A DNA stretch of 38,573 nt from Heterodontus francisci (Eukaryota). The stretch covers positions 496,001 to 534,573 of the forward strand of contig NW_027142325.1 of the NCBI RefSeq assembly GCF_036365525.1. The letters run 5' to 3'. The position numbers and the translations under genes are program-made. The notes beneath the pieces are model-generated. The model was not told the DNA's origin. It made no database searches and saw only the letters and a list, made by a program, of their open reading frames with translations. Shown here in pieces: positions 6,341 to 36,400 of the stretch. Within the stretch, counting starts at the first letter, position 1; each line of letters begins with the position of its first letter.

Positions 6341-6494
6341 NNNNNNNNNNNNNNNNNNNNNNNNNNNNNNNNNNNNNNNNNNNNNNNNNNNNNNNNNNNN
6401 NNNNNNNNNNNNNNNNNNNNNNNNNNNNNNNNNNNNNNNNNNNNNNNNNNNNNNNNNNNNNNNNNNNNNNNNNNNNNNNNNNNNNNNNNNNNNN
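6341..6494. other. Assembly gap (Ns)
   Basis: Run of n preceded by a CA-repeat start, probably a collapsed microsatellite. Confidence 0.99.
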
Positions 6495-12480: not shown

Positions 12481-15400
12481 TATAAACCATCTGAACCCGT
12501 CTGTTATATTCCAGCCTGTAACTCACTGTTATTTATCCATTATTTAATGTATAAACTACCCAAACCCATCTGTTATATTCCAGCTTGTAACTCACTGTTA
12601 TTTATCCATTATTCTATGTATAAACTACCCAAACCCCTCTGTTATATTCCAGCCTGTAACTCACTGTTATTTATCCATTATTCTATGTATAAACTACCCA
12701 AACCCCTCTGTTATATTCCAGCCTGTAACTCACTGTTATTTATCCATTATTTAATGTATAAACTACCCAAATCCCTCTGTTATATTCCAGCCTGTAACTC
12801 ACTGTTATTTATCCATTATTCTATGTATAAACTACCCAAATCCCTCTGTTATATTCCAGCCTGTAACTCTCCGTTATTTATCCATTATTCTATAAATTAC
12901 CCAAATCCCTCTGTTATATTCCGGCCTGTAACTCACTGTTATTTATCCATTATTCTATGTATAAACTACCCAAATCCCTCTGTTATATTCCAGCCTGTAA
13001 CTCACCGTTATTTATCCATTATTCTATGTATAAACTACCCAAACCCCTCTGTTATATTCCAGCCTGTAACTCACTGTTATTTATCCATTATTCTATGTAT
13101 AAACTACCCAAATCCCTCTGTTATATTCCAGCCTGTAACTCACTGTTATTTATCCATTATTCTATGTATAAACTACCCAAACCCCTCTGTTATATTCCAG
13201 CCTGTAACTCACTGTTATTTATCCATTATTCTATGTATAAACTACCCAAACCCCTCTGTTATATTCCAGCCTGTAACTCACTGTTATTTATCCATTATTC
13301 TATGTATAAACTACCCAAACCCCTCTGTTATATTCCAGCCTGTAACTCATCGTTATTTATCCATTATTCTATGTATAAACTACCCAAACCCCTCTGTTAT
13401 ATTCCAGCCTGTAACTCACTGTTATTTATCCATTATTCTATGTATAAACTACCCAAACCCCTCTGTTATATTCCGGGCTGTAACTCACCGTTATTTATCC
13501 ATTATTCTATAAATTACCCAAATCCCTCTGTTATATTCCAGCCTGTAACTCACCGTTATTTATCCATTATTCTATAAATTACCCAAATCCCTCTGTTATA
13601 TTCCGGCCTGTAACTCACCGTTATTTATCCATTATTCTATAAATTACCCAAATCCCTCTGTTATATTCCGGCCTGTAAATCACTGTTATTTATCCATTAT
13701 TCTATAAATTACCCAAATCCCTCTGTTATATTCCAGCCTGTAACTCACTGTTATTTATCCATTATTCTATAAATTACCCAAATCCCTCTGTTATATTCCA
13801 GCCTGTAACTCACCGTTATTTATCCATTATTCTATAAATTACCCAAATCCCTCTGTTATATTCCGGCCTGTAACTCACCGTTATTTATCCATTATTCTAT
13901 AAATTACCCAAATCCCTCTGTTATATTCCGGCCTGTAAATCACTGTTATTTATCCATTATTCTATAAATTACCCAAATCCCTCTGTTATATTCCAGCCTG
14001 TAAATCACTGTTATTTATCCATTATTCTATAAATTACCCAAATCCCTCTGTTATATTCCAGCCTGTAACTCACTGTTATTTATCCATTATTCTATAAATT
14101 ACCCAAATCCCTCTGTTATATTCCGGCCTGTAACTCACTGTTATTTATCCATTATTCTATAAATTACCCAAGTCCCTCTGTTATATTCCGGCCTGTAACT
14201 CACCGTTATTTATCCATTATTCTATAAATTACCCAAATCCCTCTGTTATATTCCGGCCTGTAACTCACCGTTATTTATCCATTATTCTATAAATTACCCA
14301 AATCCCTCTGTTATATTCCAGCCTGTAACTCACCGTTATTTATCCATTATTCTATAAATTACCCAAATCCCTCTGTTATATTCCGGCCTGTAACTCACTG
14401 TTATTTATCCATTATTCTATAAATTACCCAAATCCCTCTGTTATATTCCGGCCTGTAACTCACCGTTATTTATCCATTATTCTATAAATTACCCAAATCC
14501 CTCTGTTATATTCCGGCCTGTAACTCACCGTTATTTATCCATTATTCTATAAATTACCCAAATCCCTCTGTTATATTCCAGCCTGTAACTCACTGTTATT
14601 TATCCATTATTCTATAAATTACCCAAATCCCTCTGTTATATTCCGGCCTGTAACTCACCGTTATTTATCCATTATTCTATAAATTACCCAAATCCCTCTG
14701 TTATATTCCGGCCTGTAACTCACCGTTATTTATCCATTATTCTATAAATTACCCAAATCCCTCTGTTATATTCCAGCCTGTAACTCACCGTTATTTATCC
14801 ATTATTCTATAAATTACCCAAATCCCTCTGTTATATTCCGGCCTGTAACTCACTGTTATTTATCCATTATTCTATAAATTACCCAAATCCCTCTGTTATA
14901 TTCCAGCCTGTAACTCACCGTTATTTATCCATTATTCTATAAATTACCCAAATCCCTCTGTTATATTCCGGCCTGTAACTCACCGTTATTTATCCATTAT
15001 TCTATAAATTACCCAAATCCCTCTGTTATATTCCGGCCTGTAACTCACCGTTATTTATCCATTATTCTATAAATTACCCAAATCCCTCTGTTATATTCCG
15101 GCCTGTAACTCACCGTTATTTATCCATTATTCTATAAATTACCCAAATCCCTCTGTTATATTCCGGCCTGTAACTCACTGTTATTTATCCATTATTCTAT
15201 AAATTACCCAAATCCCTCTGTTATATTCCGGCCTGTAACTCACCGTTATTTATCCATTATTCTATAAATTACCCAAATCCCTCTGTTATATTCCGGCCTG
15301 TAACTCACCGTTATTTATCCATTATTCTATAAATTACCCAAATCCCTCTGTTATATTCCGGCCTGTAACTCACCGTTATTTATCCATTATTCTATAAATT

Positions 15401-18400
15401 ACCCAAATCCCTCTGTTATATTCCAGCCTGTAACTCACCGTTATTTATCCATTATTCTATAAATTACCCAAATCCCTCTGTTATATTCCGGCCTGTAACT
15501 CACCGTTATTTATCCATTATTCTATAAATTACCCAAATCCCTCTGTTATATTCCGGCCTGTAACTCACCGTTATTTATCCATTATTCTATAAATTACCCA
15601 AATCCCTCTGTTATATTCCGGCCTGTAACTCACCGTTATTTATCCATTATTCTATAAATTACCCAAATCCCTCTGTTATATTCCGGCCTGTAACTCACCG
15701 TTATTTATCCATTATTCTATAAATTACCCAAATCCCTCTGTTATATTCCGGCCTGTAACTCACCGTTATTTATCCATTATTCTATAAATTACCCAAATCC
15801 CTCTGTTATATTCCGGCCTGTAACTCACCGTTATTTATCCATTATTCTATAAATTACCCAAATCCCTCTGTTATATTCCTGCCTGTAACTCACCGTTATT
15901 TATCCATTATTCTATAAATTACCCAAATCCCTCTGTTATATTCCGGCCTGTAACTCACCGTTATTTATCCATTATTCTATAAATTACCCAAATCCCTCTG
16001 TTATATTCCGGCCTGTAACTCACCGTTATTTATCCATTATTCTATAAATTACCCAAATCCCTCTGTTATATTCCGGCCTGTAACTCACCGTTATTTATCC
16101 ATTATTCTATAAATTACCCAAATCCCTCTGTTATATTCCGGCCTGTAACTCACCGTTATTTATCCATTATTCTATAAATTACCCAAATCCCTCTGTTATA
16201 TTCCGGCCTGTAACTCACTGTTATTTATCCATTATTCTATAAATTACCCAAATCCCTCTGTTATATTCCAGCCTGTAACTCACCGTTATTTATCCATTAT
16301 TCTATAAATTACCCAAATCCCTCTGTTATATTCCAGCCTGTAACTCACCGTTATTTATCCATTATTCTATAAATTACCCAAATCCCTCTGTTATATTCCG
16401 GCCTGTAACTCACCGTTATTTATCCATTATTCTATAAATTACCCAAATCCCTCTGTTATATTCCGGCCTGTAACTCACCGTTATTTATCCATTATTCTAT
16501 AAATTACCCAAATCCCTCTGTTATATTCCGGCCTGTAACTCACCGTTATTTATCCATTATTCTATAAATTACCCAAATCCCTCTGTTATATTCCGGCCTG
16601 TAACTCACCGTTATTTATCCATTATTCTATAAATTACCCAAATCCCTCTGTTATATTCCGGCCTGTAACTCACCGTTATTTATCCATTATTCTATAAATT
16701 ACCCAAATCCCTCTGTTATATTCCGGCCTGTAACTCACCGTTATTTATCCATTATTCTATAAATTACCCAAATCCCTCTGTTATATTCCGGCCTGTAACT
16801 CACCGTTATTTATCCATTATTCTATAAATTACCCAAATCCCTCTGTTATATTCCGGCCTGTAACTCACCGTTATTTATCCATTATTCTATAAATTACCCA
16901 AATCCCTCTGTTATATTCCAGCCTGTAACTCACCGTTATTTATCCATTATTCTATAAATTACCCAAATCCCTCTGTTATATTCCGGCCTGTAACTCACCG
17001 TTATTTATCCATTATTCTATAAATTACCCAAATCCCTCTGTTATATTCCGGCCTGTAACTCACCGTTATTTATCCATTATTCTATAAATTACCCAAATCC
17101 CTCTGTTATATTCCGGCCTGTAACTCACCGTTATTTATCCATTATTCTATAAATTACCCAAATCCCTCTGTTATATTCCGGCCTGTAACTCACCGTTATT
17201 TATCCATTATTCTATAAATTACCCAAATCCCTCTGTTATATTCCAGCCTGTAACTCACTGTTATTTATCCATTATTCTATAAATTACCCAAATCCCTCTG
17301 TTATATTCCGGCCTGTAACTCACTGTTATTTATCCATTATTCTATAAATTACCCAAATCCCTCTGTTATATTCCAGCCTGTAACTCACCGTTATTTATCC
17401 ATTATTCTATAAATTACCCAAATCCCTCTGTTATATTCCAGCCTGTAACTCACCGTTATTTATCCATTATTCTATAAATTACCCAAATCCCTCTGTTATA
17501 TTCCGGCCTGTAACTCACTGTTATTTATCCATTATTCTATAAATTACCCAAATCCCTCTGTTATATTCCGGCCTGTAACTCACTGTTAGTTATCCATTAT
17601 TCTATAAATTACCCAAATCCCTCTGTTATATTCCAGCCTGTAACTCACCGTTATTTATCCATTATTCTATAAATTACCCAAATCCCTCTGTTATATTCCG
17701 GCCTGTAACTCACCGTTATTTATCCATTATTCTATAAATTACCCAAATCCCTCTGTTATATTCCAGCCTGTAACTCACCGTTATTTATCCATTATTCTAT
17801 AAATTACCCAAATCCCTCTGTTATATTCCGGCCTGTAACTCACTGTTATTTATCCATTATTCTATAAATTACCCAAATCCCTCTGTTATATTCCAGCCTG
17901 TAACTCACTGTTATTTATCCATTATTCTATAAATTACCCAAATCCCTCTGTTATATTCCGGCCTGTAACTCACTGTTATTTATCCATTATTCTATAAATT
18001 ACCCAAATCCCTCTGTTATATTCCAGCCTGTAACTCACTGTTATTTATCCATTATTCTATAAATTACCCAAATCCCTCTGTTATATTCCGGCCTGTAACT
18101 CACCGTTATTTATCCATTATTCTATAAATTACCCAAATCCCTCTGTTATATTCCGGCCTGTAACTCACCGTTATTTATCCATTATTCTATAAATTACCCA
18201 AATCCCTCTGTTATATTCCAGCCTGTAACTCACCGTTATTTATCCATTATTCTATAAATTACCCAAATCCCTCTGTTATATTCCGGCCTGTAACTCACTG
18301 TTATTTATCCATTATTCTATAAATTACCCAAATCCCTCTGTTATATTCCAGCCTGTAACTCACTGTTATTTATCCATTATTCTATAAATTACCCAAATCC

Positions 18401-21400
18401 CTCTGTTATATTCCGGCCTGTAACTCACCGTTATTTATCCATTATTCTATAAATTACCCAAATCCCTCTGTTATATTCCAGCCTGTAACTCACCGTTATT
18501 TATCCATTATTCTATAAATTACCCAAACCCCTCTGTTATATTCCAGCCTGTAACTCACCGTTATTTATCCATTATTCTATAAATTACCCAAATCCCTCTG
18601 TTATATTCCAGCCTGTAACTCACTGTTATTTATCCATTATTCTATAAATTACCCAAATCCCTCTGTTATATTCCAGCCTGTAACTCACCGTTATTTATCC
18701 ATTATTCTATAAATTACCCAAATCCCTCTGTTATATTCCAGCCTGTAACTCACCGTTATTTATCCATTATTCTATAAATTACCCAAATCCCTCTGTTATA
18801 TTCCGGCCTGTAACTCACTGTTATTTATCCATTATTCTATAAATTACCCAAATCCCTCTGTTATATTCCGGCCTGTAACTCACTGTTATTTATCCATTAT
18901 TCTATAAATTACCCAAATCCCTCTGTTATATTCCGGCCTGTAACTCACCGTTATTTATCCATTATTCTATAAATTACCCAAATCCCTCTGTTATATTCCA
19001 GCCTGTAACTCACCGTTATTTATCCATTATTCTATAAATTACCCAAATCCCTCTGTTATATTCCAGCCTGTAACTCACTGTTATTTATCCATTATTCTAT
19101 AAATTACCCAAATCCCTCTGTTATATTCCAGCCTGTAACTCACCGTTATTTATCCATTATTCTATAAATTACCCAAATCCCTCTGTTATATTCCGGCCTG
19201 TAACTCACTGTTATTTATCCATTATTCTATAAATTACCCAAATCCCTCTGTTATATTCCAGCCTGTAACTCACCGTTATTTATCCATTATTCTATAAATT
19301 ACCCAAATCCCTCTGTTATATTCCAGCCTGTAACTCACTGTTATTTATCCATTATTCTATAAATTACCCAAATCCCTCTGTTATATTCCAGCCTGTAACT
19401 CACCGTTATTTATCCATTATTCTATAAATTACCCAAATCCCTCTGTTATATTCCAGCCTGTAACTCACCGTTATTTATCCATTATTCTATAAATTACCCA
19501 AATCCCTCTGTTATATTCCAGCCTGTAACTCACTGTTATTTATCCATTATTCTATAAACTACCCAAATCCCTCTGTTATATTCCAGCCTGTAACTCACTG
19601 TTATTTATCCATTATTCTATAAACTACCCAAATCCCTCTGTTATATTCCGGCTTGTAACTCACTGTTATTTATCCATTATTCTATAAATTACCCAAATCC
19701 CTCTGTTATATTCCAGCCTGTAACTCACCGTTATTTATCCATTATTCTATAAATTACCCAAATCCCTCTGTTATATTCCAGCCTGTAACTCACCGTTATT
19801 TATCCATTATTCTATAAATTACCCAAATCCCTCTGTTATATTCCGGCCTGTAACTCACTGTTATTTATCCATTATTCTATAAACTACCCAAATCCCTCTG
19901 TTATATTCCAGCCTGTAACTCACCGTTATTTATCCATTATTCTATAAATTACCCAAATCCCTCTGTTATATTCCAGCCTGTAACTCACTGTTATTTATCC
20001 ATTATTCTATAAATTCCCCAAATCCCTCTGTTATATTCCAGCCTGTAACTCACCGTTATTTATCCATTATTCTATAAATTACCCAAATCCCTCTGTTATA
20101 TTCCAGCCTGTAACTCACCGTTATTTATCCATTATTCTATAAATTACCCAAATCCCTCTGTTATATTCCAGCCTGTAACTCACTGTTATTTATCCATTAT
20201 TCTATAAATTACCCAAATCCCTCTGTTATATTCCAGCCTGTAACTCACTGTTATTTATCCATTATTCTATAAATTACCCAAATCCCTCTGTTATATTCCA
20301 GCCTGTAACTCACTGTTATTTATCCATTATTCTATAAACTACCCAAATCCCTCTGTTATATTCCAGCCTGTAACTCACCGTTATTTATCCATTATTCTAT
20401 AAATTACCCAAATCCCTCTGTTATATTCCAGCCTGTAACTCACCGTTATTTATCCATTATTCTATAAATTACCCAAATCCCTCTGTTATATTCCAGCCTG
20501 TAACTCACTGTTATTTATCCATTATTCTATAAATTACCCAAATCCCTCTGTTATATTCCAGCCTGTAACTCACCGTTATTTATCCATTATTCTATAAATT
20601 ACCCAAATCCCTCTGTTATATTCCGGCCTGTAACTCACCGTTATTTATCCATTATTCTATAAATTACCCAAATCCCTCTGTTATATTCCGGCCTGTAACT
20701 CACTGTTATTTATCCATTATTCTATAAATTACCCAAATCCCTCTGTTATATTCCAGCCTGTAACTCACTGTTATTTATCCATTATTCTATAAATTACCCA
20801 AATCCCTCTGTTATATTCCGGCCTGTAACTCACCGTTATTTATCCATTATTCTATAAATTACCCAAATCCCTCTGTTATATTCCAGCCTGTAACTCACCG
20901 TTATTTATCCATTATTCTATAAATTACCCAAACCCCTCTGTTATATTCCAGCCTGTAACTCACCGTTATTTATCCATTATTCTATAAATTACCCAAATCC
21001 CTCTGTTATATTCCAGCCTGTAACTCACTGTTATTTATCCATTATTCTATAAATTACCCAAATCCCTCTGTTATATTCCAGCCTGTAACTCACCGTTATT
21101 TATCCATTATTCTATAAATTACCCAAATCCCTCTGTTATATTCCAGCCTGTAACTCACCGTTATTTATCCATTATTCTATAAATTACCCAAATCCCTCTG
21201 TTATATTCCGGCCTGTAACTCACTGTTATTTATCCATTATTCTATAAATTACCCAAATCCCTCTGTTATATTCCGGCCTGTAACTCACTGTTATTTATCC
21301 ATTATTCTATAAATTACCCAAATCCCTCTGTTATATTCCGGCCTGTAACTCACCGTTATTTATCCATTATTCTATAAATTACCCAAATCCCTCTGTTATA

Positions 21401-24400
21401 TTCCAGCCTGTAACTCACCGTTATTTATCCATTATTCTATAAATTACCCAAATCCCTCTGTTATATTCCAGCCTGTAACTCACTGTTATTTATCCATTAT
21501 TCTATAAATTACCCAAATCCCTCTGTTATATTCCAGCCTGTAACTCACCGTTATTTATCCATTATTCTATAAATTACCCAAATCCCTCTGTTATATTCCG
21601 GCCTGTAACTCACTGTTATTTATCCATTATTCTATAAATTACCCAAATCCCTCTGTTATATTCCAGCCTGTAACTCACCGTTATTTATCCATTATTCTAT
21701 AAATTACCCAAATCCCTCTGTTATATTCCAGCCTGTAACTCACTGTTATTTATCCATTATTCTATAAATTACCCAAATCCCTCTGTTATATTCCAGCCTG
21801 TAACTCACCGTTATTTATCCATTATTCTATAAATTACCCAAATCCCTCTGTTATATTCCAGCCTGTAACTCACCGTTATTTATCCATTATTCTATAAATT
21901 ACCCAAATCCCTCTGTTATATTCCAGCCTGTAACTCACTGTTATTTATCCATTATTCTATAAACTACCCAAATCCCTCTGTTATATTCCAGCCTGTAACT
22001 CACTGTTATTTATCCATTATTCTATAAACTACCCAAATCCCTCTGTTATATTCCGGCCTGTAACTCACTGTTATTTATCCATTATTCTATAAACTACCCA
22101 AATCCCTCTGTTATATTCCAGCCTGTAACTCACCGTTATTTATCCATTATTCTATAAATTACCCAAATCCCTCTGTTATATTCCAGCCTGTAACTCACTG
22201 TTATTTATCCATTATTCTATAAATTCCCCAAATCCCTCTGTTATATTCCAGCCTGTAACTCACCGTTATTTATCCATTATTCTATAAATTACCCAAATCC
22301 CTCTGTTATATTCCAGCCTGTAACTCACTGTTATTTATCCATTATTCTATAAATTACCCAAATCCCTCTGTTATATTCCAGCCTGTAACTCACTGTTATT
22401 TATCCATTATTCTATAAACTACCCAAATCCCTCTGTTATATTCCGGCCTGTAACTCACTGTTATTTATCCATTATTCTATAAACTACCCAAATCCCTCTG
22501 TTATATTCCAGCCTGTAACTCACTGTTATTTATCCATTATTCTATAAACTACCCAAATCCCTCTGTTATATTCCGGCCTGTAACTCACCGTTATTTATCC
22601 ATTATTCTATAAATTACCCAAATCCCTCTGTTATATTCCAGCCTGTAACTCACCGTTATTTATCCATTATTCTATAAATTACCCAAATCCCTCTGTTATA
22701 TTCCAGCCTGTAACTCACTGTTATTTATCCATTATTCTATAAACTACCCAAATCCCTCTGTTATATTCCAGCCTGTAACTCACTGTTATTTATCCATTAT
22801 TCTATAAACTACCCAAATCCCTCTGTTATATTCCGGCCTGTAACTCACCGTTATTTATCCATTATTCTATAAACTACCCAAATCCCTCTGTTATATTCCG
22901 GCCTGTAACTCACTGTTATTTATCCATTATTCTATAAACTACCCAAATCCCTCTGTTATATTCCAGCCTGTAACTCACTGTTATTTATCCATTATTCTAT
23001 AAATTACCCAAATCCCTCTGTTATATTCCAGCCTGTAACTCACTGTTATTTATCCATTATTCTATAAACTACCCAAATCCCTCTGTTATATTCCGGCCTG
23101 TAACTCACTGTTATTTATCCATTATTCTATAAACTACCCAAATCCCTCTGTTATATTCCAGCCTGTAACTCACTGTTATTTATCCATTATTCTATAAACT
23201 ACCCAAATCCCTCTGTTATATTCCGGCCTGTAACTCACCGTTATTTATCCATTATTCTATAAATTACCCAAATCCCTCTGTTATATTCCAGCCTGTAACT
23301 CACCGTTATTTATCCATTATTCTATAAATTACCCAAATCCCTCTGTTATATTCCAGCCTGTAACTCACTGTTATTTATCCATTATTCTATAAACTACCCA
23401 AATCCCTCTGTTATATTCCAGCCTGTAACTCACTGTTATTTATCCATTATTCTATAAACTACCCAAATCCCTCTGTTATATTCCAGCCTGTAACTCACTG
23501 TTATTTATCCATTATTCTATAAATTACCCAAATCCCTCTGTTATATTCCAGCCTGTAACTCACTGTTATTTATCCATTATTCTATAAACTACCCAAATCC
23601 CTCTGTTATATTCCAGCCTGTAACTCACTGTTATTTATCCATTATTCTATAAACTACCCAAATCCCTCTGTTATATTCCAGCCTGTAACTCACTGTTATT
23701 TATCCATTATTCTATAAATTACCCAAATCCCTCTGTTATATTCCAGCCTGTAACTCACTGTTATTTATCCATTATTCTATAAACTACCCAAACCCCTCTG
23801 TTATATTCCAGCCTGTAACTCACTGTTATTTATCCATTATTCTATAAACTACCCAAACCCCTCTGTTATATTCCAGCCTGTAACTCACTGTTATTTATCC
23901 ATTATTCTATAAACTACCCAAATCCCTCTGTTATATTCCAGCCTGTAACTCACTGTTATTTATCCATTATTCTATAAATTACCCAAATCCCTCTGTTATA
24001 TTCCAGCCTGTAACTCACCGTTATTTATCCATTATTCTATAAATTACCCAAATCCCTCTGTTATATTCCAGCCTGTAACTCACTGTTATTTATCCATTAT
24101 TCTATAAACTACCCAAATCCCTCTGTTATATTCCAGCCTGTAACTCACTGTTATTTATCCATTATTCTATAAATTACCCAAATCCCTCTGTTATATTCCA
24201 GCCTGTAACTCACCGTTATTTATCCATTATTCTATAAATTACCCAAATCCCTCTGTTATATTCCAGCCTGTAACTCACTGTTATTTATCCATTATTCTAT
24301 AAATTACCCAAATCCCTCTGTTATATTCCGGCCTGTAACTCACCGTTATTTATCCATTATTCTATAAATTACCCAAATCCCTCTGTTATATTCCGGCCTG

Positions 24401-27143
24401 TAACTCACCGTTATTTATCCATTATTCTATAAATTACCCAAATCCCTCTGTTATATTCCAGCCTGTAACTCACTGTTATTTATCCATTATTCTATAAACT
24501 ACCCAAATCCCTCTGTTATATTCCAGCCTGTAACTCACTGTTATTTATCCATTATTCTATAAACTACCCAAATCCCTCTGTTATATTCCAGCCTGTAACT
24601 CACTGTTATTTATCCATTATTCTATAAATTACCCAAATCCCTCTGTTATATTCCAGCCTGTAACTCACTGTTATTTATCCATTATTCTATAAACTACCCA
24701 AATCCCTCTGTTATATTCCAGCCTGTAACTCACTGTTATTTATCCATTATTCTATAAATTACCCAAATCCCTCTGTTATATTCCAGCCTGTAACTCACCG
24801 TTATTTATCCATTATTCTATAAATTACCCAAATCCCTCTGTTATATTCCAGCCTGTAACTCACCGTTATTTATCCATTATTCTATAAACTACCCAAATCC
24901 CTCTGTTATATTCCAGCCTGTAACTCACTGTTATTTATCCATTATTCTATAAATTACCCAAATCCCTCTGTTATATTCCAGCCTGTAACTCACCGTTATT
25001 TATCCATTATTCTATAAATTACCCAAATCCCTCTGTTATATTCCAGCCTGTAACTCACTGTTATTTATCCATTATTCTATAAATTACCCAAATCCCTCTG
25101 TTATATTCCAGCCTGTAACTCACCGTTATTTATCCATTATTCTATAAATTACCCAAATCCCTCTGTTATATTCCAGCCTGTAACTCACTGTTATTTATCC
25201 ATTATTCTATAAACTACCCAAATCCCTCTGTTATATTCCGGCCTGTAACTCACTGTTATTTATCCATTATTCTATAAACTACCCAAATCCCTCTGTTATA
25301 TTCCAGCCTGTAACTCACTGTTATTTATCCATTATTCTATAAACTACCCAAATCCCTCTGTTATATTCCGGCCTGTAACTCACCGTTATTTATCCATTAT
25401 TCTATAAATTACCCAAATCCCTCTGTTATATTCCAGCCTGTAACTCACCGTTATTTATCCATTATTCTATAAATTACCCAAATCCCTCTGTTATATTCCA
25501 GCCTGTAACTCACTGTTATTTATCCATTATTCTATAAACTACCCAAATCCCTCTGTTATATTCCAGCCTGTAACTCACTGTTATTTATCCATTATTCTAT
25601 AAACTACCCAAATCCCTCTGTTATATTCCAGCCTGTAACTCACTGTTATTTATCCATTATTCTATAAATTACCCAAATCCCTCTGTTATATTCCAGCCTG
25701 TAACTCACTGTTATTTATCCATTATTCTATAAACTACCCAAATCCCTCTGTTATATTCCAGCCTGTAACTCACTGTTATTTATCCATTATTCTATAAACT
25801 ACCCAAATCCCTCTGTTATATTCCAGCCTGTAACTCACTGTTATTTATCCATTATTCTATAAACTACCCAAATCCCTCTGTTATATTCCAGCCTGTAACT
25901 CACTGTTATTTATCCATTATTCTATAAACTACCCAAATCCCTCTGTTATATTCCAGCCTGTAACTCACTGTTATTTATCCATTATTCTATAAATTACCCA
26001 AATCCCTCTGTTATATTCCAGCCTGTAACTCACCGTTATTTATCCATTATTCTATAAATTACCCAAATCCCTCTGTTATATTCCAGCCTGTAACTCACTG
26101 TTATTTATCCATTATTCTATAAACTACCCAAATCCCTCTGTTATATTCCAGCCTGTAACTCACTGTTATTTATCCATTATTCTATAAATTACCCAAATCC
26201 CTCTGTTATATTCCAGCCTGTAACTCACCGTTATTTATCCATTATTCTATAAATTACCCAAATCCCTCTGTTATATTCCAGCCTGTAACTCACCGTTATT
26301 TATCCATTATTCTATAAATTACCCAAATCCCTCTGTTATATTCCGGCCTGTAACTCACCGTTATTTATCCATTATTCTATAAATTACCCAAATCCCTCTG
26401 TTATATTCCGGCCTGTAACTCACCGTTATTTATCCATTATTCTATAAATTACCCAAATCCCTCTGTTATATTCCAGCCTGTAACTCACCGTTATTTATCC
26501 ATTATTCTATAAATTACCCAAATCCCTCTGTTATATTCCAGCCTGTAACTCACTGTTATTTATCCATTATTCTATAAACTACCCAAATCCCTCTGTTATA
26601 TTCCAGCCTGTAACTCACTGTTATTTATCCATTATTCTATAAATTACCCAAATCCCTCTGTTATATTCCAGCCTGTAACTCACCGTTATTTATCCATTAT
26701 TCTATAAATTACCCAAATCCCTCTGTTATATTCCAGCCTGTAACTCACTGTTATTTATCCATTATTCTATAAATTACCCAAATCCCTCTGTTATATTCCG
26801 GCCTGTAACTCACCGTTATTTATCCATTATTCTATAAACTACCCAAATCCCTCTGTTATATTCCGGCCTGTAACTCACCGTTATTTATCCATTATTCTAT
26901 AAATTACCCAAATCCCTCTGTTATATTCCAGCCTGTAACTCACTGTTATTTATCCATTATTCTATAAATTACCCAAATCCCTCTGTTATATTCCAGCCTG
27001 TAACTCACCGTTATTTATCCATTATTCTATAAATTACCCAAACCCCTCTGTTATATTCCAGCCTGTAACTCACTGTTATTTATCCATTATTCTATGTATA
27101 AACTACCCAAACCCCTCTGTTATATTCTAGCCTGTAACTCACT
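12481..27143. repeat. Tandem satellite/minisatellite array of ~225 units: 65-bp core flanked by 69-bp variants
   Basis: Unit AAAYTACCCAAATCCCTCTGTTATATTCCRGCCTGTAACTCACYGTTATTTATCCATTATTCTAT. The line pattern recurs every 780 nt (12 x 65). Units at ~12481-13510 and ~27095 carry an extra GTAT (69 bp), which gives the 23-aa repeated ORFs. Confidence 0.98.
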
Positions 27144-27305: not shown

Positions 27306-27689
27306 AGGTTTCTGCTAATGGTTGGACAATGAGCGCTGCGGATGATGTGAGTGTTGAGGAAGGAGGGTCCGCTGTCTTGCCGTGTACTTTCACTCACCCA
27401 CACCCTGATCAGACGGTCACCGGCTCTGTGATATGGTACAAAGGCCGTTACAATGTTATTTTTAAGTGTACATATTCTGGTCCAGGCCATTCACAGAGTG
27501 AGCTGTGTGAGAATGTGATACAGCAGGACGGCGGGAATCGATTCAGATTCGTGGGGAACTTCAGTAACAAAGATGTCTCAATAATGATGGAGCGGCTGAT
27601 CCGGGCGGACAGCGGTCCTTATCAGTGTCGTGTGGAGCTCAATATTGGAAATATTAATGTACTGAAACTAACGAGTCTGAGAGTGGAAG
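27306..27689 (+). CDS. Internal exon: Ig V-set domain 1 of a Siglec-15-like protein
   Basis: Acceptor (CT)n-cacag| and donor G|gtgagg, phase 1-1, no stops. WTMS..EEGGSAVLPCTFTHPH..IW..FKC..SELC..RFRFVGN..D..YQCRVEL matches the Siglec-15 pattern (AVLPCTFTHPH, FRC, SELC, YFCRVEF). The essential Arg codon CGT is at 27629-27631. Confidence 0.9.
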
Positions 27690-27714
27690 GTGAGGAACAA
27701 TGTTCAGGGGCTGC

Positions 27715-27960
27715 AGCTGCCCCGATAGCTCAATGGCTAAAGACTCCACCTGGTCTGGTCCTGAACCACACGGGTAAATAAACTCTCAGCAATCCCGGGA
27801 TTTGAAAGGGGAATATTGCCCGGGATTCCTGCTCCTGATCACTCTCCAGACACTCCTGCTGGAAGGTGTCTTATTGGACATTGAATAAGACAATGGGCCA
27901 GCATGTGATGCTCTCCACAGTCAAATAGTCCATTGCCACTCATTGACCAGGCTTGTGCTG
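27715..27960 (+). mobile_element. Degenerate LF-SINE-like element in the intron
   Basis: tRNA-like head atagctcaatgg. Body gggattcctgctcctgatcactctccagacactcctgctggaag..tgtgatgctctccacagtcaaatag resembles the LF-SINE consensus as recalled. Confidence 0.6.
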
Positions 27961-28299
27961 TAAGGAAGGCCATCTGGGTGAGATCAGTAATAATATTTTA
28001 GGATAATGAGCTATTTCAGTTTGGACATTGGGTAAGTGCAGCATGTCCATCTCAGTCTCAGTGCTGTAGGCCTGCAGTGTCCAGCTCAAAGCTGATTGGA
28101 CCTGTTCCACCACTTCATATATTCTCAGTGGAGAATTGGCGGGTGGATCACAGGGAGACGATGTCAATTGGGTAATTGCTGCTCAGCTCACACTTCAGGG
28201 CAGTACCGAGGGAGTGCTGCACTCGCTGAGGTGCCATTAGCTGCACTTTAACCTTCCTCCGATGTTGCCCCGCACGTCGATTGAATCTTCTGGGCATTT

Positions 28300-28535
28300 C
28301 TGGGACCAATGGGAAATGATATTTAACCGAGACAAATGCAGTGTGATGCGGGTAGGTAGGATCAACACGGAATTCACTGAACATTTACAGGGAATAATAC
28401 AGAAAGTGGCTGAGAGAGAAAAGGATCGAGACTGTTAATGTACACACATCACTCAAAATTCACAACCAATGCAGTGAAGCCATTGACAAAACAAACAGGG
28501 CATTGGGTTGTATTAACAAAACCATTCAGTACAAG
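28300..28535 (+). mobile_element. Ancient CR1-group LINE fragment
   Basis: caatgggaaatgatatttaaccgagacaaatgcagtgtgatg (QWEMIFNRDKCSVM), followed by ALGCINKTIQYKS. Confidence 0.55.
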
Positions 28536-28774
28536 TCAAACCACTTCCCACTTTCTGCTAGTCTGAGAAACGTCCCTGACCTCTTACCCTCTGTTTCCTG
28601 TTTTGTCACCATCTTTCAATCTGTTCTGCTACCCGGCCTCCTGAGCCCACAATCCCTGGGATCTCCACTGGCTGAGTACTACACTGGGCAATGCCTCTAC
28701 CTACTGGACCACAGGGAGAGCTCAGAACTGAAATAAATTAAAGTTCTCATCAAGACCTGGATTTTGCTGCCTCA

Positions 28775-28964
28775 CTGTGTGGTGGAGGGAGGTTCAATTG
28801 AAACATTTAAAAGGGAATTAGATTGAAATAAAGGAAGAATGTGCAGGGTTTTGGGGAGAAGGCGGGGGGAATAGCAGGAAGTGAATTGCTCTTTCGGTGA
28901 GCCGGTGCAGACATGTTGGGCTGAATGGTCTCCTTCTGCAGTGTAGCAATTCTGTGATCTGTGA
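28775..28964 (+). mobile_element. CR1 3' end fragment ending just upstream of the exon-2 acceptor
   Basis: Reverse complement of the 3' end at 285-470. The tail reads aattctgtgatctgtga. Confidence 0.8.
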
Positions 28965-29001
28965 AGACACTGATCCATTCTAATGTCTGTCCTTTCCTCA
29001 G

Positions 29002-29352
29002 CTGCTAGTGGAAATGTCTCAGTGGTGACTGGGACCGAGGGAGCTTCAGTTACATTGCCCTGTATGTTCACACCCAGGAGTTACCGCACCCTGTCCACTG
29101 TTACATGGATGAGGAAGGAGCCCTACCAACACATAGTCCCATTCAGAGCCCAATCAAATGGATCTTGGACAACTGCAAATGGTGGAAATCGGTACGAGCT
29201 CATCGGGAATCCACAGGAGGGAAACGCCTCAACCAGGATAAACCAGCTGAGTGTGAATGACAATCACCCTTACCTGTGTCTGGTGGAATACACATCATTG
29301 GACAATTATCAACATCTGATCCAGACTGAGACACAGCTGCTGGTTGTACATG
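29002..29352 (+). CDS. Internal exon: Ig V-set domain 2 of a Siglec-15-like protein (lacks the essential Arg)
   Basis: Acceptor cctttcctcag| and donor G|gtaaga, phase 1-1, in frame with exon 1 (G+CT=Ala). TEGASVTLPCMFT..VTWMRKEPY..RYELIGNP..D..YLCLVEY..TQLLVV has the canonical B-strand Cys, C-strand Trp and F-strand Cys. Confidence 0.88.
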
Positions 29353-29431
29353 GTAAGAAACCATTCCCACATTCTCCAGTGTATCGAGGTTGTACAGTGA
29401 GGGTGAGCGGTGTAATATAAAACACTCATCA

Positions 29432-29735
29432 GCTGTGGCTCAGTGGTTATCACTCTCACCTCTGAGTCAGTCGGTTGTGGGTTCAAGACACTCCAATGCA
29501 ATACTGATGGAATGTGACACTGTTTAAGGTACTGTGTATGAGAAGAGATATTAAAGTAAGGCCTTATCTGGAAGAGTATGGGAGTTGACCTAATGTCCTG
29601 GTCAATATTTATCTCTGAACCAACATCATCAAACCATAGTCTGATAATTATCTCATTGCTGTTTATGGGATCTTGCTGTGTGCAAATTATCTGCTGTGTA
29701 TCCTGCATTAAAACAGTGACTACACTTCAAAAACA
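29432..29735 (+). mobile_element. tRNA-derived Deu-domain SINE
   Basis: Head ctgtggctcagtggttatcactctcacctctgagtcag..gggttcaag. 3' part tctcattgctgtttatgggatcttgctgtgtgcaaat..acagtgactacacttcaaaa. Confidence 0.8.
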
Positions 29736-30024: not shown

Positions 30025-31828
30025 TGTCCGGTGCCAGGGATCGGGACATCGGCTCAGGGCTGGAGAGGAACTTGCAGTGGGAGGGGGAGGATCCAGTTGT
30101 CATCATCCCCATGGGTACCAACAACGTATTTATAGAACCAGGAAAAAGGTTCTGCAAAGCGAGTATGAGCAGCTAGAAGCTAAATTAAAAAGCAGGACCA
30201 CAAAGGAAATAACCTCTGGGGTATTACCTGAGCCACGAGCAAATTGGCGGAGGGTAAATAAGATTAGATAGTTAAATGCATCGCTCAAAGAGTGATGAGG
30301 GAGAACTGGGTTTTGATTTCTGGGGCACTGGCACCTGTACTGGGGAATGTGGGAGCTGTACCGTTGGCACGGTCTTCATCTGAACCATGTTGGGACCAGT
30401 GTTCTGTCGAGTCATATAACTAGGGCAGTAAAGAGGGCTTTTACACTAAAAGGAAGGATGAATGAGAATGGACAGAGACTGCTTGAGTTGTGTACCTATC
30501 ATAACCTCTGCATCACCAACTTGTTCTTTCACACTAAACCCTGTCACCAGGTTTCTTGGAGGCACCCAAGATCACGTCGTTGGCACCAGCTGGACCTCAT
30601 CGTCACAAGGCGAGCCTCTCTAAACAGCGTTCAAATCACACGCAGCTTCCACAGTGCGGACTGCAACACTGACCACTCCCTGGTGTGCAGCAAAGTTAGA
30701 CTCAAATCAAAAAAGCTGCATCACTCCAAGCAGTAGGGCCGCCCGCGCATCAACACGAGCAGAATTTCTTATCCACAGCTGTTACATAAGTTTCTAAATT
30801 CACTTGAAAAAGCCCTTCAAAACACTCCCACAGGGGATGCAGAGACCATGTGGGCCCGCATCAGAGACGCCATCTATGACTCAGCAATGACCACCTATGG
30901 CAAACGTGTGAAGCAGAATGCAGACTGGTTTCAATCTCACTTTGAAGAGCTGGAACCTGTCATAGCTGCTAAGCGCATTGCACTGTTGAACGACAAGAAA
31001 GCCCCCAGCGCGTTAACATCCATAGCACTTAAAGCAGCCAGAAGCACTGCACAAAGAACAGCCAGGCGCTGCGCAAATGACTACTGGCAACACCTATGCA
31101 GTCATATTCAGCTGGCCTCTGACACCGGAAACATCAGAGGAATGTATGATGGCATTAAGAGAGCTTTTGGACCAACCATCAAGAAGATCGCCCCCCGTCA
31201 AATCTAAATCAGGGGACACAATCACTGACCAACGCAAGCAAATGGACCGCTGGGTTGAGCACTACCTAGAACTGTACTCCAGGGAAAATGTTGTCACTGA
31301 GACCATCCTCAATGCAGCCCAGTCTCTGCCAGTCATGGATGAGCTGGATGTACAGCCATCAAAATCGGAACTCAGTGATGCCATTGATCCTTTAGTCAAC
31401 GGAAAAGCCCCTGGGAAGGATGGCATTACCCCTGAAATAATCAAGAGTGCCAAGACTGCTATACTTTCAGCACTGTACAAACTGCTTTGCCTCTGCTGGG
31501 ACGAGGGAGCAGTACCACATGACATGCGCGATGCCAATATCATCAACCTCTGTAAGAACAAGGGTGACCGCGGTGACTGCAACAACTACCGTGGAATCTC
31601 CCTGCTCAGCATAGTGGGGATAGTCTTCGCTCGAGTTGCTTTAAACAGGCTCCAGAAGCTGGCTGAGCGTGTCTACCCTGAGGCAGAGTGTGGCTTTCGA
31701 GCACAGAGATCCACCACTGACATAATAATATAAAAGCAAAATACTGCGGATGCTGGAAATCTGAAACAAAAACAAGAAATGCTGGATTCACTCAGCAGGT
31801 CTGGCAGCATCTGTGGAAAGAGAAGCAG

Positions 31829-31865
31829 AGTTAATGTTTCGGGTCAGTGACCCTTCTTCGGAACT
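31829..31865 (-). ncRNA. Putative minimal hammerhead ribozyme in the Penelope terminal repeat
   Basis: The - strand reads AGUU CCGAAGA A GGGUC-ACU-GACCC GAAA CAUU AACU: stem I, CUGANGA-like core with U4C, stem II, GAAA. Minimal hammerheads are an established feature of Penelope pLTRs. Confidence 0.55.
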
Positions 31866-32245
31866 GACAAATATTAGAAAAGTCACAGATTATAAACAAG
31901 TGAGGTGGGGGTTGGGCAAGAGATAACAAAGGAGAAGGTGCAGATTGGACCAGGCCACATAGCTGACCAAAAGGTCACGGAGCAAAGGCAAACAATATGT
32001 TAATGGTGTTTTGAAAGACAAAGCATTAGTACAGATTAGGTGTGAATATACTGAATATAGAACATCAGCAAGTGCAAACCTGAAGAAAAACAACCTGAAA
32101 AAAACAGTGGGTAAGCAAACTGAATAAACTAAGATGAAATGAAATAAATGCAAAAAAAGATTGTAAAAAATGTAAAAAGGAATGCAAAAAAAAGGAAGAA
32201 AAAATAACTAAAAATGACTAAAAATGAAAGTAAAGTGGGGGGCTG

Positions 32246-33409
32246 TCATGCTCTGAAATTATTGAACTCAATGTTCAGTCCGGCAGGCTGTAGTGTGCCT
32301 AATCGGTAGATGAGATGCTGTTCCTCGAGCTTGCGTTGATGTTCACTGGAACACTGCAGCAATCCCAGGACAGAGATGTGAGCATGAGAGCAGGGGGGAG
32401 TGTTGAAATGGCAAGCAACCGGAAGCTCAGGGTCCTGCTTGCGGACTGAGCGGAGATGTTCCGCAAAGCGGACACCCAGTCTGCGCTTGGTCTCCCCAAT
32501 GTAGAGGAGACCACACTGTGAGCAGCGAATACAGTATACTACATTGAAAGAAGTACAAGTAAATCGCTGCTTCACCTGAAAGGAGTGTTTGGGGCCTGGG
32601 ATAGTGAGGAGAGAGGAGGTAAATGGGCAGGTATTACACCTCCTGCGACTGCAGGGGAAGGTGCCCTGGGACGGGGACGAGGTGGTGGGGGTAATGGAGG
32701 AGTGGACCAGGGTGTCGCGGAGGGAACGATCCCTTCGGAATGCTGACAGGGGAAGGGAGGGGAAGATGCGACTGGTAGTGGCATCATGCTGGAGGTGGCG
32801 AAAATGGCGGAGGATGATCCTTTGGATATGGAGGCTGGTGGGATGAAAAGTGAGGACAAGGGGAACCCTGTCACGGTTCTGGGAGGGAGGGGAAGGGGTG
32901 AGGGTAGAGGTGCGGGGAATGGGTCGGACACGGTTGAGGGCCCTGTCAACCACAGTGGGGGGAAATCCTCGGTTGAGGAAAAAGGAGGTCATATCAGAAG
33001 CACCGTCATGGAAGGTAGCATCATCAGAGCAGATGCGTCGGAGACGGAGAAACTGGGAGAATGGAATGGAGTCCTTACAGGAGGTAGGGTGTGAAGAAGT
33101 GTAGTCGAGGTAGCTGTGGGAGTCAGTGGGCTTATAATGGATATTAGTAGATAACCTATCCCCAGAGATGGAAACAGAGAAGTCGAGGAAGGGAAGGGAA
33201 GTGTCAGAGATGGACCATGTAAAGGTGAGAGAAGGGTGGAAATTGGAAGCAAAGTTGATAAAGTTTTCTAGTTCGGGGCGGGAGCAGGAAACGGCACCGA
33301 TACAGTCATCAATGTACCGGAAAAAGAGTTGGGGGAGGGGGCCTGAGTAGGACTGGAACAAAGAATGCTCGACATATCCCACAAAAAGACAGGCATAACT
33401 AGGACCCAT
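32246..33409 (-). CDS. Penelope RT C-terminal half, Cys-rich linker and GIY-YIG endonuclease (truncated, uninterrupted 387 aa)
   Basis: MGPSYACLF, FFRYIDD, FLD, YKPTD..SSHP, PFSQFLRLRRICS, CxxxRCxxC, VVYCIRCSQCGLLYIGETKR..RFAEH, GLN. Confidence 0.9.
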   Translation of the reverse strand: MGPSYACLFVGYVEHSLFQSYSGPLPQLFFRYIDDCIGAVSCSRPELENFINFASNFHPSLTFTWSISDTSLPFLDFSVSISGDRLSTNIHYKPTDSHSYLDYTSSHPTSCKDSIPFSQFLRLRRICSDDATFHDGASDMTSFFLNRGFPPTVVDRALNRVRPIPRTSTLTPSPPSQNRDRVPLVLTFHPTSLHIQRIILRHFRHLQHDATTSRIFPSLPLSAFRRDRSLRDTLVHSSITPTTSSPSQGTFPCSRRRCNTCPFTSSLLTIPGPKHSFQVKQRFTCTSFNVVYCIRCSQCGLLYIGETKRRLGVRFAEHLRSVRKQDPELPVACHFNTPPCSHAHISVLGLLQCSSEHQRKLEEQHLIYRLGTLQPAGLNIEFNNFRA

Positions 33410-36400
33410 GCGGGTCCACCACTGACATGCTGTTCTCTCTTCGCCAGCTACAGGAGAAATGCCGCAAACAACAGATGCCCCTCTACGTTGCTTTCATTGA
33501 TCTCACCAAAGCCTTTGACCTCATCAGCAGACGTGGTCTCTTCAGACTACTAGAAAAGATCGGATGTCCACCAAAGCTACTAAGTATCATCACCTCATTC
33601 CATGACAATATGAAAGGCACAATTCAACATAGCGGCGCCTCATCAGACCCCTTTCCTATCCTGAGTGGCGTGAAACAGGGCTGTGTTCTCACACCCACAC
33701 TGTTTGAGATCGTCTTCTCCCTGCTGCTCTCTCATGTGTTCAAGTCTTCAGAAGAAGGAATTTTTCTCCACGCAAGAGCAGATGGCAGGTTGTTCAACCT
33801 TGCCCGTCTAAGAGCGAAGACCAAAGTACGGAAAGTCCTCATCAGAGAACTCCTCTTTGCTGACGATGCTACATTAACATCCCACACAGAAGAGTGTCTG
33901 CAGAGTCTCATTGACAGGTTTGCGGCTGCTTGCAACGAATTTGGCCTAACCATCAGCCTCAAGAAAACGAACATCATGGGACAGGACGTCAGAAATGCTC
34001 CATCCATCAATATCAGTGACCATGCTCTGGAAGTGGTTCAAGAGTTCACCTACCTAGGCTCAACTATCACCAGTAACCTGTCTCTCGATGCAGAAATCAA
34101 CAAGCGCATGGGAAAGGCTTCCACTGCTATGTCCAGACTGGCCAAGAGAATGTGGGAAAATGGCGCACTGACACGGAACACAAAAGTCCGAGTGTATCAA
34201 GCCTGTGTCCTCAGTACCTTGCTCTACGGCAGCGAGGCCTGGACAATGTATGTCAGCCAAGACCGACGTCTCAATTCATTCCATCTTTGCTGCCTCCGGA
34301 GAATCCTTGGCATCAGGTGGCAGGACCGTATCTCCAACACAGAAGTGTTCGAGGTGGCCAACATCCCCAGCTTATACACACCACTGAGCCAGCGGCGCTT
34401 GAGATGGCTTGGCCATGTGAGCCGCATGGAAGATGGCAGGATCCCCAAGGACACATTGTACAGCGAGATCGTCACTGGTATCAGACCCACCAGCCGTCCA
34501 TGTCACCGCTTTAAAGATGTCTGCAAACGCGACATGAAGTCCTGTGACATTATTCACAAGTCGTGGGAGTCAGTTGCCAGCGATCGCCAGAGCTGGCGGG
34601 CAGCCATAAAGGCGGGGCTAAAGCGTGGCGAGTCGAAGAGACTTAGCAGTTGGCCGGAAAAAGAACAGAAGCGCAAGGAGAGAGCCAACTGTGTAACAGC
34701 CCCGACAACCAATTTTATCTGCAGCGCCTGTGGAAGAGTCTGTCACTCTAGAATTGGCCTTTATAGCCACTCCAGGCGCTGCTCCACAAACCACTGACCA
34801 CCTCCAGGCGCTTACCCATTGTCTCTCGAGACAAGTAGGCCAAAGAGTGGGGGGAAGAGATCATGTGAGAGGAGATGTGGTAAATCAAATGAAAACGATA
34901 AGGTAATAGAGCAGAGTGGCGAATTAAGTAATGATAACCAGAGTGTGGCAGGAAGGAACATGGCATACAAGCTTAAGAGTGTACCAGCAGAGAAGACCAG
35001 AGATGGCAGAAATGGTATAAAGAGAGAGTTAAAGGCGCTGTATCTGAATGCACACAGCATTCGTAATGAACAGTTGCTACACTGTATGACAGAGTATACA
35101 GGAAGAAATAAATGGGGCCTGTAAGAAAGGTACTGCAATCACATGGGTGATTTTAATCTATATAGATTGGACGAATCAGATTGGCAAATGTTGCTTGAAA
35201 AATGAGTTCACAGAGTGTATTTCGGACAATTTCACAGAGCAGTACGTTCTGGAACCAACTAGGGAGCATGCTATTCTAGACCTGGTAATGTGCAATCAGA
35301 CAGGATTGGTCATTAACCTCATGGTAAAGGAGCCTCTAGGTGACAGTGATTATAACATGAGAGAATTTCACATTCAGTTTGAAGGGGAGATGTGTGGGCC
35401 TAAGACTAGTGTTTAAACCTAAATAAAGGTAAATACAAGAGTATGCCAGCAAAAAATATAAAATCAGACTGTAAAAGCTTCTACAGGTACGTAAAAAGGA
35501 AAAAGACAAATGTGGGTCCATTACAGGCAGAGTCAGGACAATTTATAATGGGGAATAGAGAAATGGCAGAGAAGCTAAATAATTATTTTGTGTCTGTCTT
35601 CACTGAGGAAGATATAAGAAATTTCCCAGAATTAGAGATCCAAGGGGTTAGGGGGAATGAGGAATTGAAGGAAATTAGTATTAGTAAGAAGGTTGTATTG
35701 GAGAAATTAATGGGGCTGAAGGTTGATAAGTCCCCAGGACCTGATATTCTACATCCCAGAGTGTTTAAAAAGGTAGCTATGGAGATAGTGGATGCATTGG
35801 TGATCATCTTCCAAAATTCTATAGATTCTGGAGCAATTCCTGCAGATTGGAAGGTTGCAAATGTCATCCCACTATTTAAGAAGGGAGGGAGAGAAAACAG
35901 GGAATTACAGACCTGTTAGCCTTACATCGGTCATTGGGAAAATGCTAGAATCTATTCTAAAGGATGTGATAAATGGACACTTGGATAATAATGATCTGAT
36001 TGAGCATAGTCAACATGGATTTATGAATGGGAAATCATGTTTGATGAACCTGTTGAAGTTTTTTGAGGATGTTACTAACAGAATTGATAAAGCAGAGTGG
36101 TATACCTGGATTTTCAGAAGGCTTTTGATAAAGTCCCCCACAGGAGGTTGTTTAGCAAAATTAAAGCACATGGGATAGGAGGTAATCTACTGGCATGGAT
36201 TAAGGATTGGTTAACAGGCAGAAAGCAGACAGTAGGAATAAACGGGTCATTCCCGTATTGGCAGGCTGTGACTAGTGGGGTACCGCAGGGATCAGTGCTT
36301 GGGCCCCAGCTGTTCACAATATATATCAATGATTTGGATGTGGGCACCATATGTAGTATTTCCAAGTTCACGGATGACACAAAACTAGGTGGGAATGTGT

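Follow-up and report, generated by a model that had tools for sequence, protein, structure and literature searches.

A Siglec-15-derived elasmobranch receptor family, probably of paired type, and its likely incomplete copy in Heterodontus francisci

Siglec-15 is described as an activating receptor composed of one V-set and one C2 domain (PMC7226832, PMC10264397, PMC6288428). In the human protein, roles have been assigned to W44, to the C64–C142 and C95–C104 pairs, to R143 and to Y154 (PMC10264397), and the membrane lysine of Siglec-15 is reported as required for DAP10/DAP12 binding (PMC7226832). Siglec-15 is presented as conserved, single and activating, and the CD33-related Siglecs as fast-evolving. 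The paired Siglecs, as Siglec-5/14 and Siglec-11/16, are described as having ectodomains that gene conversion keeps alike, and primate Siglec-12 as a CD33-related receptor in which two V-set domains are followed by C2 domains (PMC6288428). For cartilaginous fish, the skate MDIRs have been described as multigene Ig receptors, similar to CD300, TREM and pIgR (PMC3031540).

The window, that is, the whole stretch of 38,573 nucleotides that was analysed, carries two V-set exons, here named V1 and V2. The features of the locus are:

27306..27689, plus strand: V1 exon, a Siglec-15-type V-set of 384 nt (acceptor CCACAG, donor GTGAGG).
27629..27631, plus strand: Arg codon CGT of V1, aligned with R143 of Siglec-15 (F strand).
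27690..29001, plus strand: GT..AG intron of 1312 nt between V1 and V2, skipped in contigs of 4/4 runs.
29002..29352, plus strand: V2 exon, a V-set with 2 cysteines and no Arg, 351 nt (acceptor CCTCAG, donor GTAAGA).
29139..29141, plus strand: Pro codon in V2, where 112 of 114 V2 domains of the family have Thr.
29268..29270, plus strand: Pro codon in V2, two residues upstream of the F-strand Tyr-Leu-Cys; Pro occurs here in 0/114 other V2 domains.
29280..29282, plus strand: Leu codon CTG of V2 at the Arg position.
30551..30672, plus strand: cryptic acceptor within a broken LINE; V2 is spliced to it in one contig from run X1 and also in P0051, a database model.

Both exons are open, with phase 1-1 and an in-frame junction through an Ala codon, and score 48.4 (V1) and 54.5 bits (V2) against the Pfam V-set curated cut-off of 26. 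A first-pass annotation of this DNA had proposed two intact V-set exons joined in frame, a V1 with the four Siglec-15 cysteines and the Arg, and a V2 with Leu in its place and without the extra Cys pair. All of this stands: the splice sites are canonical, V1 presents equivalents of W44, C64, C95, C104, C142 and R143 in a domain that includes the sequence YQCRVE, and V2 has two cysteines and the Leu codon. At the position of Y154 the window V1 has Ile, where most paralogues have Phe. In the PDB comparison, the best solved relative of V1 was Siglec-15 (7zoz, E 3.5e-17), followed by CD33 (2e-7).

The junction 27689->29002 was present in contigs of all four public runs compared (4/4; two samples, two studies, presumed to be RNA). 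The spliced contigs bear the letters of paralogues, so the junction documents the splice of the family and not that of the window copy itself.

A search with V1 returned 51 longer protein matches, each of them (51/51) belonging to a shark, ray or skate; Heterodontus francisci models with 86–93% identity came closest, and P0051 is the database model identical to the window locus. A profile search gave 185 matches, of which the 120 listed are all elasmobranch and come from 22 species, with no chimaera member among them. We call this elasmobranch V1-V2 family without C2, to which the window exons belong, family A. Most of its proteins are gene-model predictions, some of them isoforms, and they bear only automatic and conflicting names (pIgR-like, JAML-like, A33-like, Siglec-10, -12 and -15). 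No description of the family was found in the literature; reviews of Siglec evolution or supplementary gene lists may mention it.

The locus had been taken for unusual, a claim that falls: among the layouts annotated by machine in family A, V1-V2 is the most frequent, an outcome named beforehand as speaking against it, and was found in 91 of the 120 listed proteins, a count that overstates complete V1 domains since some "V1" labels scoring below 50 are a V1 end or a leader. Later domain counts were restricted to domains above 140 bits. Other layouts are V1-V2-V1-V2, V1-V2-V2-V2, V1-only and V2-only, and V2-only proteins with a membrane segment occur. Intact paralogues read leader-V1-V2-membrane-tail, and a Siglec-15-type C2 was found in 0/123 family A proteins. 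An AlphaFold model of the paralogue P0008 (26-row alignment, pLDDT 79) presented two V domains and a membrane helix; a Foldseek search with the two-domain model returned only generic V-V proteins (JAML, scFv), by which the family could not be named.

The contrast between an Arg-bearing V1 and an Arg-less V2, read at first from a single locus, extends to the family. Arg is present in 76/95 V1 and in 0/114 V2 domains, which have Leu in 102/114, and the pattern is therefore a fixed trait of family A. In the remaining 19/95 V1 domains the Arg is substituted by His (8), Cys (3), Gly (3) and others. The cysteines C64, C95, C104 and C142 are kept in 88, 94, 92 and 93 of the 95 V1 domains, W44 in most, and an aromatic residue (Phe) stands at the Y154 position in 75/95. 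V1 has no conserved equivalent of Y87; the Siglec-15 Y87 motif is kept by V2 in 112/114.

Family A thus resembles Siglec-15 (7zoz) in V1 sequence, in both disulfide pairs, C64–C142 and C95–C104, in R143 and W44, and in a membrane Lys located in a homologous segment in 44/120 paralogues. The proposed derivation from Siglec-15 is supported, and Siglec-15 is the best single-domain match of V2. On the other hand, a second V domain replaces C2, the copies are many, inhibitory-type forms exist and Y87 is not conserved in V1. Family A is not Siglec-15 proper, since it lacks the layout of one V and one C2 domain. It is not CD33-related either: V1 is not of the CD33 clade by structure match, trees or profiles. 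With the paired CD33-related Siglecs (Siglec-5/14, Siglec-11/16) it shares near-identical ectodomains, opposing tails and apparent gene conversion, and it differs from them in its Siglec-15 lineage, its lack of C2 domains and its more than two members. Unlike what an MDIR relationship would give, V1 and V2 score worst against pIgR-like domains; here the MDIRs were compared by description, with the pIgR-like P0195 as stand-in. PILR alpha and beta are also paired activating/inhibitory Ig receptors; at E 0.001 they appeared in the PDB matches of neither V1 nor V2.

The window copy itself appears to be incomplete. No leader, membrane or tail exon was found in the six frames of the 38.6 kb window, where the best scores were 3.3–5.8 bits against family member minima of 15.6–52.6 bits for these profiles. 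No C2 domain was found by profile in the window either, and with C2 included the scores reached at most 6.2 bits. The exons are flanked by 27 kb upstream and by 9 kb downstream, the latter mostly retroelements. P0051 has no leader and no membrane exon, and its V2 continues into the LINE (534,573-nt contig); reading on from the 30551 acceptor gives 39 more residues and then a stop, with no membrane anchor, so that this join would yield a soluble protein. The V2 prolines at 29139 and 29268 occur in 0/114 relatives and both are located in predicted strands. A single-sequence AlphaFold run on the window V2 had a pLDDT of 35 and was uninformative on them. Taken together, these features incline us to regard the window copy as a fragment or a decaying copy, a reading we hold to be somewhat favoured.

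Alternatively, the copy may be intact and expressed, with exons beyond the window, or may encode a soluble V1-V2 decoy, and the odd residues would then be alleles or assembly errors; we give this a lesser but appreciable probability, well short of even. Both exons are open and have canonical splice sites, no conserved column of V1 carries a private change, and a single private change at such a column is ordinary for the family (one is present in 26 of 115 V2 domains, more than one in 14). In V2, three rare changes lie within 130 nt; each is C versus A, and they could be a consensus error. Leader and membrane exons could sit outside the 38.6 kb, with introns swollen by the minisatellite and the LINEs, and annotated paralogue isoforms without a membrane segment exist. 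One contig links V2 to 30551, but paralogues share the intron downstream of V2 (contig 29325–29686, 5 differences), so the LINE splice is not attributable to the window copy. The letters of the window copy at 29139 or 29268 were in none of the contigs compared, which is no sign of silence because contigs lose rare variants. Against an intact copy or a decoy stand the database model without leader and membrane exon and the position of both prolines in predicted strands.

Several repeats surround the two exons. A 65-bp minisatellite of 14.6 kb at 12500–27142, with about 224 copies and 97% matches, stops 163 bp before the V1 acceptor and would occupy the leader-V1 intron if the gene were intact; 210 of its units measure 65 bp and the other 14 measure 69 bp, 29 distinct pieces are present, and the GC skew is near -0.6. 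A broken plus-strand LINE, presumably of RTE type, lies at 30317–34797, with a reverse transcriptase (PF00078) at 33403–34794. It is interrupted at 32246–33493 by a minus-strand ORF of 415 codons, which we take to be Penelope-like from a GIY-YIG motif; Pfam gave no match for this ORF at 32246–33490. The first 12 kb and the last 4 kb of the window contain mostly decayed retroelement ORFs, and an assembly gap of 154 N is located at 6341–6494.

Membrane and tail features had also been sought for this receptor. The window has no such exon, but the paralogues provide both tail types: among the 120 listed proteins, 44 have a membrane Lys, mostly with a short tail, 36 have a neutral segment followed by tyrosine motifs (33 under a stricter ITIM pattern) and 40 are unclassifiable. 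Both types are present in 14/22 species. With a profile of the Lys segment, the membrane segments of Siglec-15 and of a second cartilaginous-fish family, family B, ranked top among 189 other proteins, with low scores as expected for 29 residues. In contigs of run X1 the end of V2 is spliced to a Lys-type exon, and in those of run X6 its partner is a neutral-type exon. Opposing signalling by the two tails is what their motifs predict.

The ectodomains do not follow the tails. Between Lys and tyrosine forms of the horn shark, V1 is 86–93% and V2 91–96% identical; similar ectodomains on opposing tails within one species are one feature by which paired receptors are recognized. A tree of 47 ectodomains, restricted to proteins whose V1-V2 is complete and whose tail is classified, has 6 changes for 7 orders, which is the minimum, versus 10 for tail type, at least 6 of these forced by starred branches; tail type is nevertheless more clustered than shuffled labels (10 vs 15.8). 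On this tree the ectodomains sort by taxonomic order and not by tail type, as gene conversion in paired receptors would give, the evidence for concerted evolution being at the protein level. In six horn shark copies, V1 differences concentrate in three places: the N-terminus, the C-C' loop and the F-G loop/G strand. Multi-residue patches in the last two of these are found in all four combinations. V2 varies in patches too. In V1, the variable positions gather on the side that corresponds to the glycan-contacting face of Siglec-15.

Family A likely works like a paired Siglec, to judge from its sequences. As its members carry activating- or inhibitory-type tails, a paired on/off system for sensing sugars has likely arisen in sharks from a gene that in mammals is known as a lone activating receptor. 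We think it likely that the window holds the ectodomain of a probably incomplete or decaying copy of a Siglec-15-derived elasmobranch family of paired activating/inhibitory sialic-acid sensors. In such a system V1 would bind a sialylated glycan via its Arg, and V2, having lost lectin function, would now serve as the spacer in place of the absent C2. The Lys forms would couple to DAP12/DAP10 and activate, and the tyrosine forms would recruit SHP phosphatases and inhibit. Gene conversion would keep both forms matched, so that a microbe engaging the inhibitory form would also trip the activating one. The C2 loss, the two opposing tail types and the signs of an incomplete window copy were overlooked in the earlier reading.

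Some observations speak against sialic-acid sensing: Y87 is not conserved in V1, the Arg is replaced in the 19 V1 domains counted above and the window copy has Ile at the Y154 position. In addition, zebrafish Siglec-15 is reported to bind the tested glycans poorly (PMC7226832), so the Arg alone is no proof of lectin activity. The receptors may then be paired but recognize another kind of ligand, either protein or lipid, borne by microbes or by self cells, through the variable loops of V1 and V2 together, the Arg being a relic. The V2-only proteins with a membrane segment and the patchy variation of V2 agree with this, as do the Lys-type members of family B, which, the horn shark's included, are Arg-less in both V domains. 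However, the Arg in 76/95 V1 domains and the W44 and Y154-position aromatic in most are found across sharks and rays, and V1 varies on the glycan-contacting face of Siglec-15. A ligand other than sialic acid seems unlikely to us.

Family B was obtained with V1 against 1.84 billion representatives (241 matches, 150 listed) and by name look-ups. It has a V-V-C2 layout with Lys or ITIM tails and occurs in chimaera, sharks and rays, including the horn shark. Families A and B are collinear across leader-V1-V2 (E 2e-46, 257 columns), their longest contigs agree in length in several species, and in Mobula hypostoma their locus tags are adjacent, all of which suggests a single gene cluster. Chimaera P0130 and horn shark P0298 illustrate the likeness: leader-V1-V2 is collinear, V2 is homologous to the second V of family B (B2), and both Lys and ITIM forms exist. 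Unlike family A, family B has a C2 domain, lacks the C95–C104 pair in its first V (B1) and occurs in chimaera. Its Lys-type members P0298, P0295, P0300–P0302 and P0146, several of them named "Siglec-15", have no Arg in either V, many ITIM-type members retain the Arg in the first V, and several B2-C2 gene models without a first V exist. No canonical V-C2-Lys Siglec-15 was found in cartilaginous fish by searches that were not designed to exclude one and that included name look-ups for 30 of the 133 new representatives.

The second V domain had been read as a simple duplicate of the first. This does not hold: V1 and V2 are only 36% identical and are sisters in neither domain tree, and V2 sides with the B2 of chimaera and sharks. 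V2 groups with B2 with support of 96/96 in a tree of 91 rows, and V1 with B1 with 82/94 in a tree of 47 rows, which omits 44 of the 91 for speed. V1 had no supported grouping with the canonical Siglec-15 V in either tree. Deep branches are poorly resolved, because the alignment has only 124 columns. A clade of V1 and V2 (p-AU 0.158) and a grouping of all Siglec-15-like domains with V2/B2 (p-AU 0.369) were not rejected, and holding the four cartilaginous-fish V types together was 0.31 log units better (p-AU 0.51).

Profiles place V2 nearest to B2 and then to Siglec-15 (mean 76 bits for B2, 49 for canonical Siglec-15, 40 for TIM, 25 for other Siglecs and 16 for pIgR-like), but the 91-row tree puts V2 and B2 beside TIM-like domains (98/77), and the other tree puts them with the pIgR outgroup. 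A V2-centred profile scored Siglec-15 at 47.5 bits, TIM-2 at 31.8 and each pIgR domain shown at 19.7 or less. B2 scored 61 bits with Siglec-15 and 32 with TIM, and V1 scored 68 with Siglec-15 and 35 with other Siglecs; for V1 and V2, pIgR-like was the lowest-scoring outgroup (about 16 bits, P0195 as pIgR-like stand-in). The TIM family combines a six-cysteine V domain with a mucin stalk; membership in it was rejected, as V2 has two cysteines and at most 30 residues separate the last V from the membrane segment.

The best reading of these profiles and trees is that V2 is an old duplicate of a Siglec-15 V that predates the chimaera-elasmobranch split. That the receptor is instead a hybrid, its V2 acquired by shuffling from a gene of TIM-, pIgR- or CD300/MDIR-like type, is quite improbable: the window V2 on its own scores TIM-2 (2e-9) slightly above Siglec-15 (5.4e-9) in the PDB comparison, and V2 and B2 adjoin TIM-like domains in one tree, but in the profiles B2 and then Siglec-15 score higher than TIM, other Siglecs and pIgR, the V2-centred profile likewise favours Siglec-15 over TIM-2 and pIgR, the Y87 motif of Siglec-15 is nearly constant in V2, and uniting the four cartilaginous-fish V types costs nothing. 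With V2 as an old Siglec-15 V duplicate, both families may go back to a Siglec-15-like gene of V-V-C2 layout that the ancestor of cartilaginous fish possessed. The Arg would have been lost from the second V, and then the C2 from family A, which would have retained the Siglec-15 features of V1; family B would have retained C2 and lost the second disulfide of its V1.

Tandem V domains are not restricted to cartilaginous fish. The lungfish Siglec-15 P0125 is V-V-C2-Lys with Arg in both V domains, the lungfish model P0121 has a single C2 and a tandem array of seven V domains of Siglec-15 type, all with Arg, and V-V forms are also found in gar, newt, axolotl and piranha relatives. The tandem V domains of lungfish, gar, salamanders and piranha relatives do not group with V2, and duplication has thus recurred. 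The specificity to cartilaginous fish that was first suggested as possible agrees with the Arg-bearing/Arg-less pair, which was seen only there, and fails for tandem V domains as such. Likewise, the supposed convergence with Siglec-12 is no special parallel, as it concerns domain count only, the two N-terminal V domains being all that Siglec-12 shares with family A, and tandem V is more widespread; lungfish P0125 and the salamander V-V receptors P0126 and P0136 are closer parallels. The lamprey multi-V proteins P0131, P0152, P0284 and P0285 have Arg at the Siglec position and score 44–50 bits against the V1/V2 profiles, exceeding other Siglecs and TIM; they are possible jawless relatives of the Siglec-15 lineage.

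Inhibitory-type tails are also more widespread. The profile of the inhibitory tail of family A scored 31.8 bits in newt, 34.3 in axolotl and 16.7 in turtle Siglec-15-like receptors, which were retrieved via the V domain alone; the best of 300 shuffles each reached 7.8, 10.7 and 3.5 bits. ITIM-type Siglec-15-like proteins occur in eel and whitefish too. It may be, then, that the Siglec-15 lineage was already paired, activating and inhibitory, in the jawed-vertebrate ancestor, and that the lone activating Siglec-15 of mammals is a remnant. We hold this tentatively, at a little under even confidence, because short tyrosine motifs can converge.

The significance of these results rests with family A; the single window locus matters little. 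Siglec-15 itself and the paired CD33-related Siglecs were known, and what is new here is a probably paired multigene family derived from Siglec-15, whose recognition corrects inconsistent database names. A multi-copy, gene-converting paired family of such origin would break the division between Siglec-15 and the CD33-related Siglecs and, if true, would mean that paired receptors for sialic acid arose independently a second time. Whether inhibitory partners of Siglec-15 are ancestral would become testable. If the ancestral pairing is true, sharks and rays would run a fast-evolving sialic-acid arms race that is independent of the CD33-related cluster.
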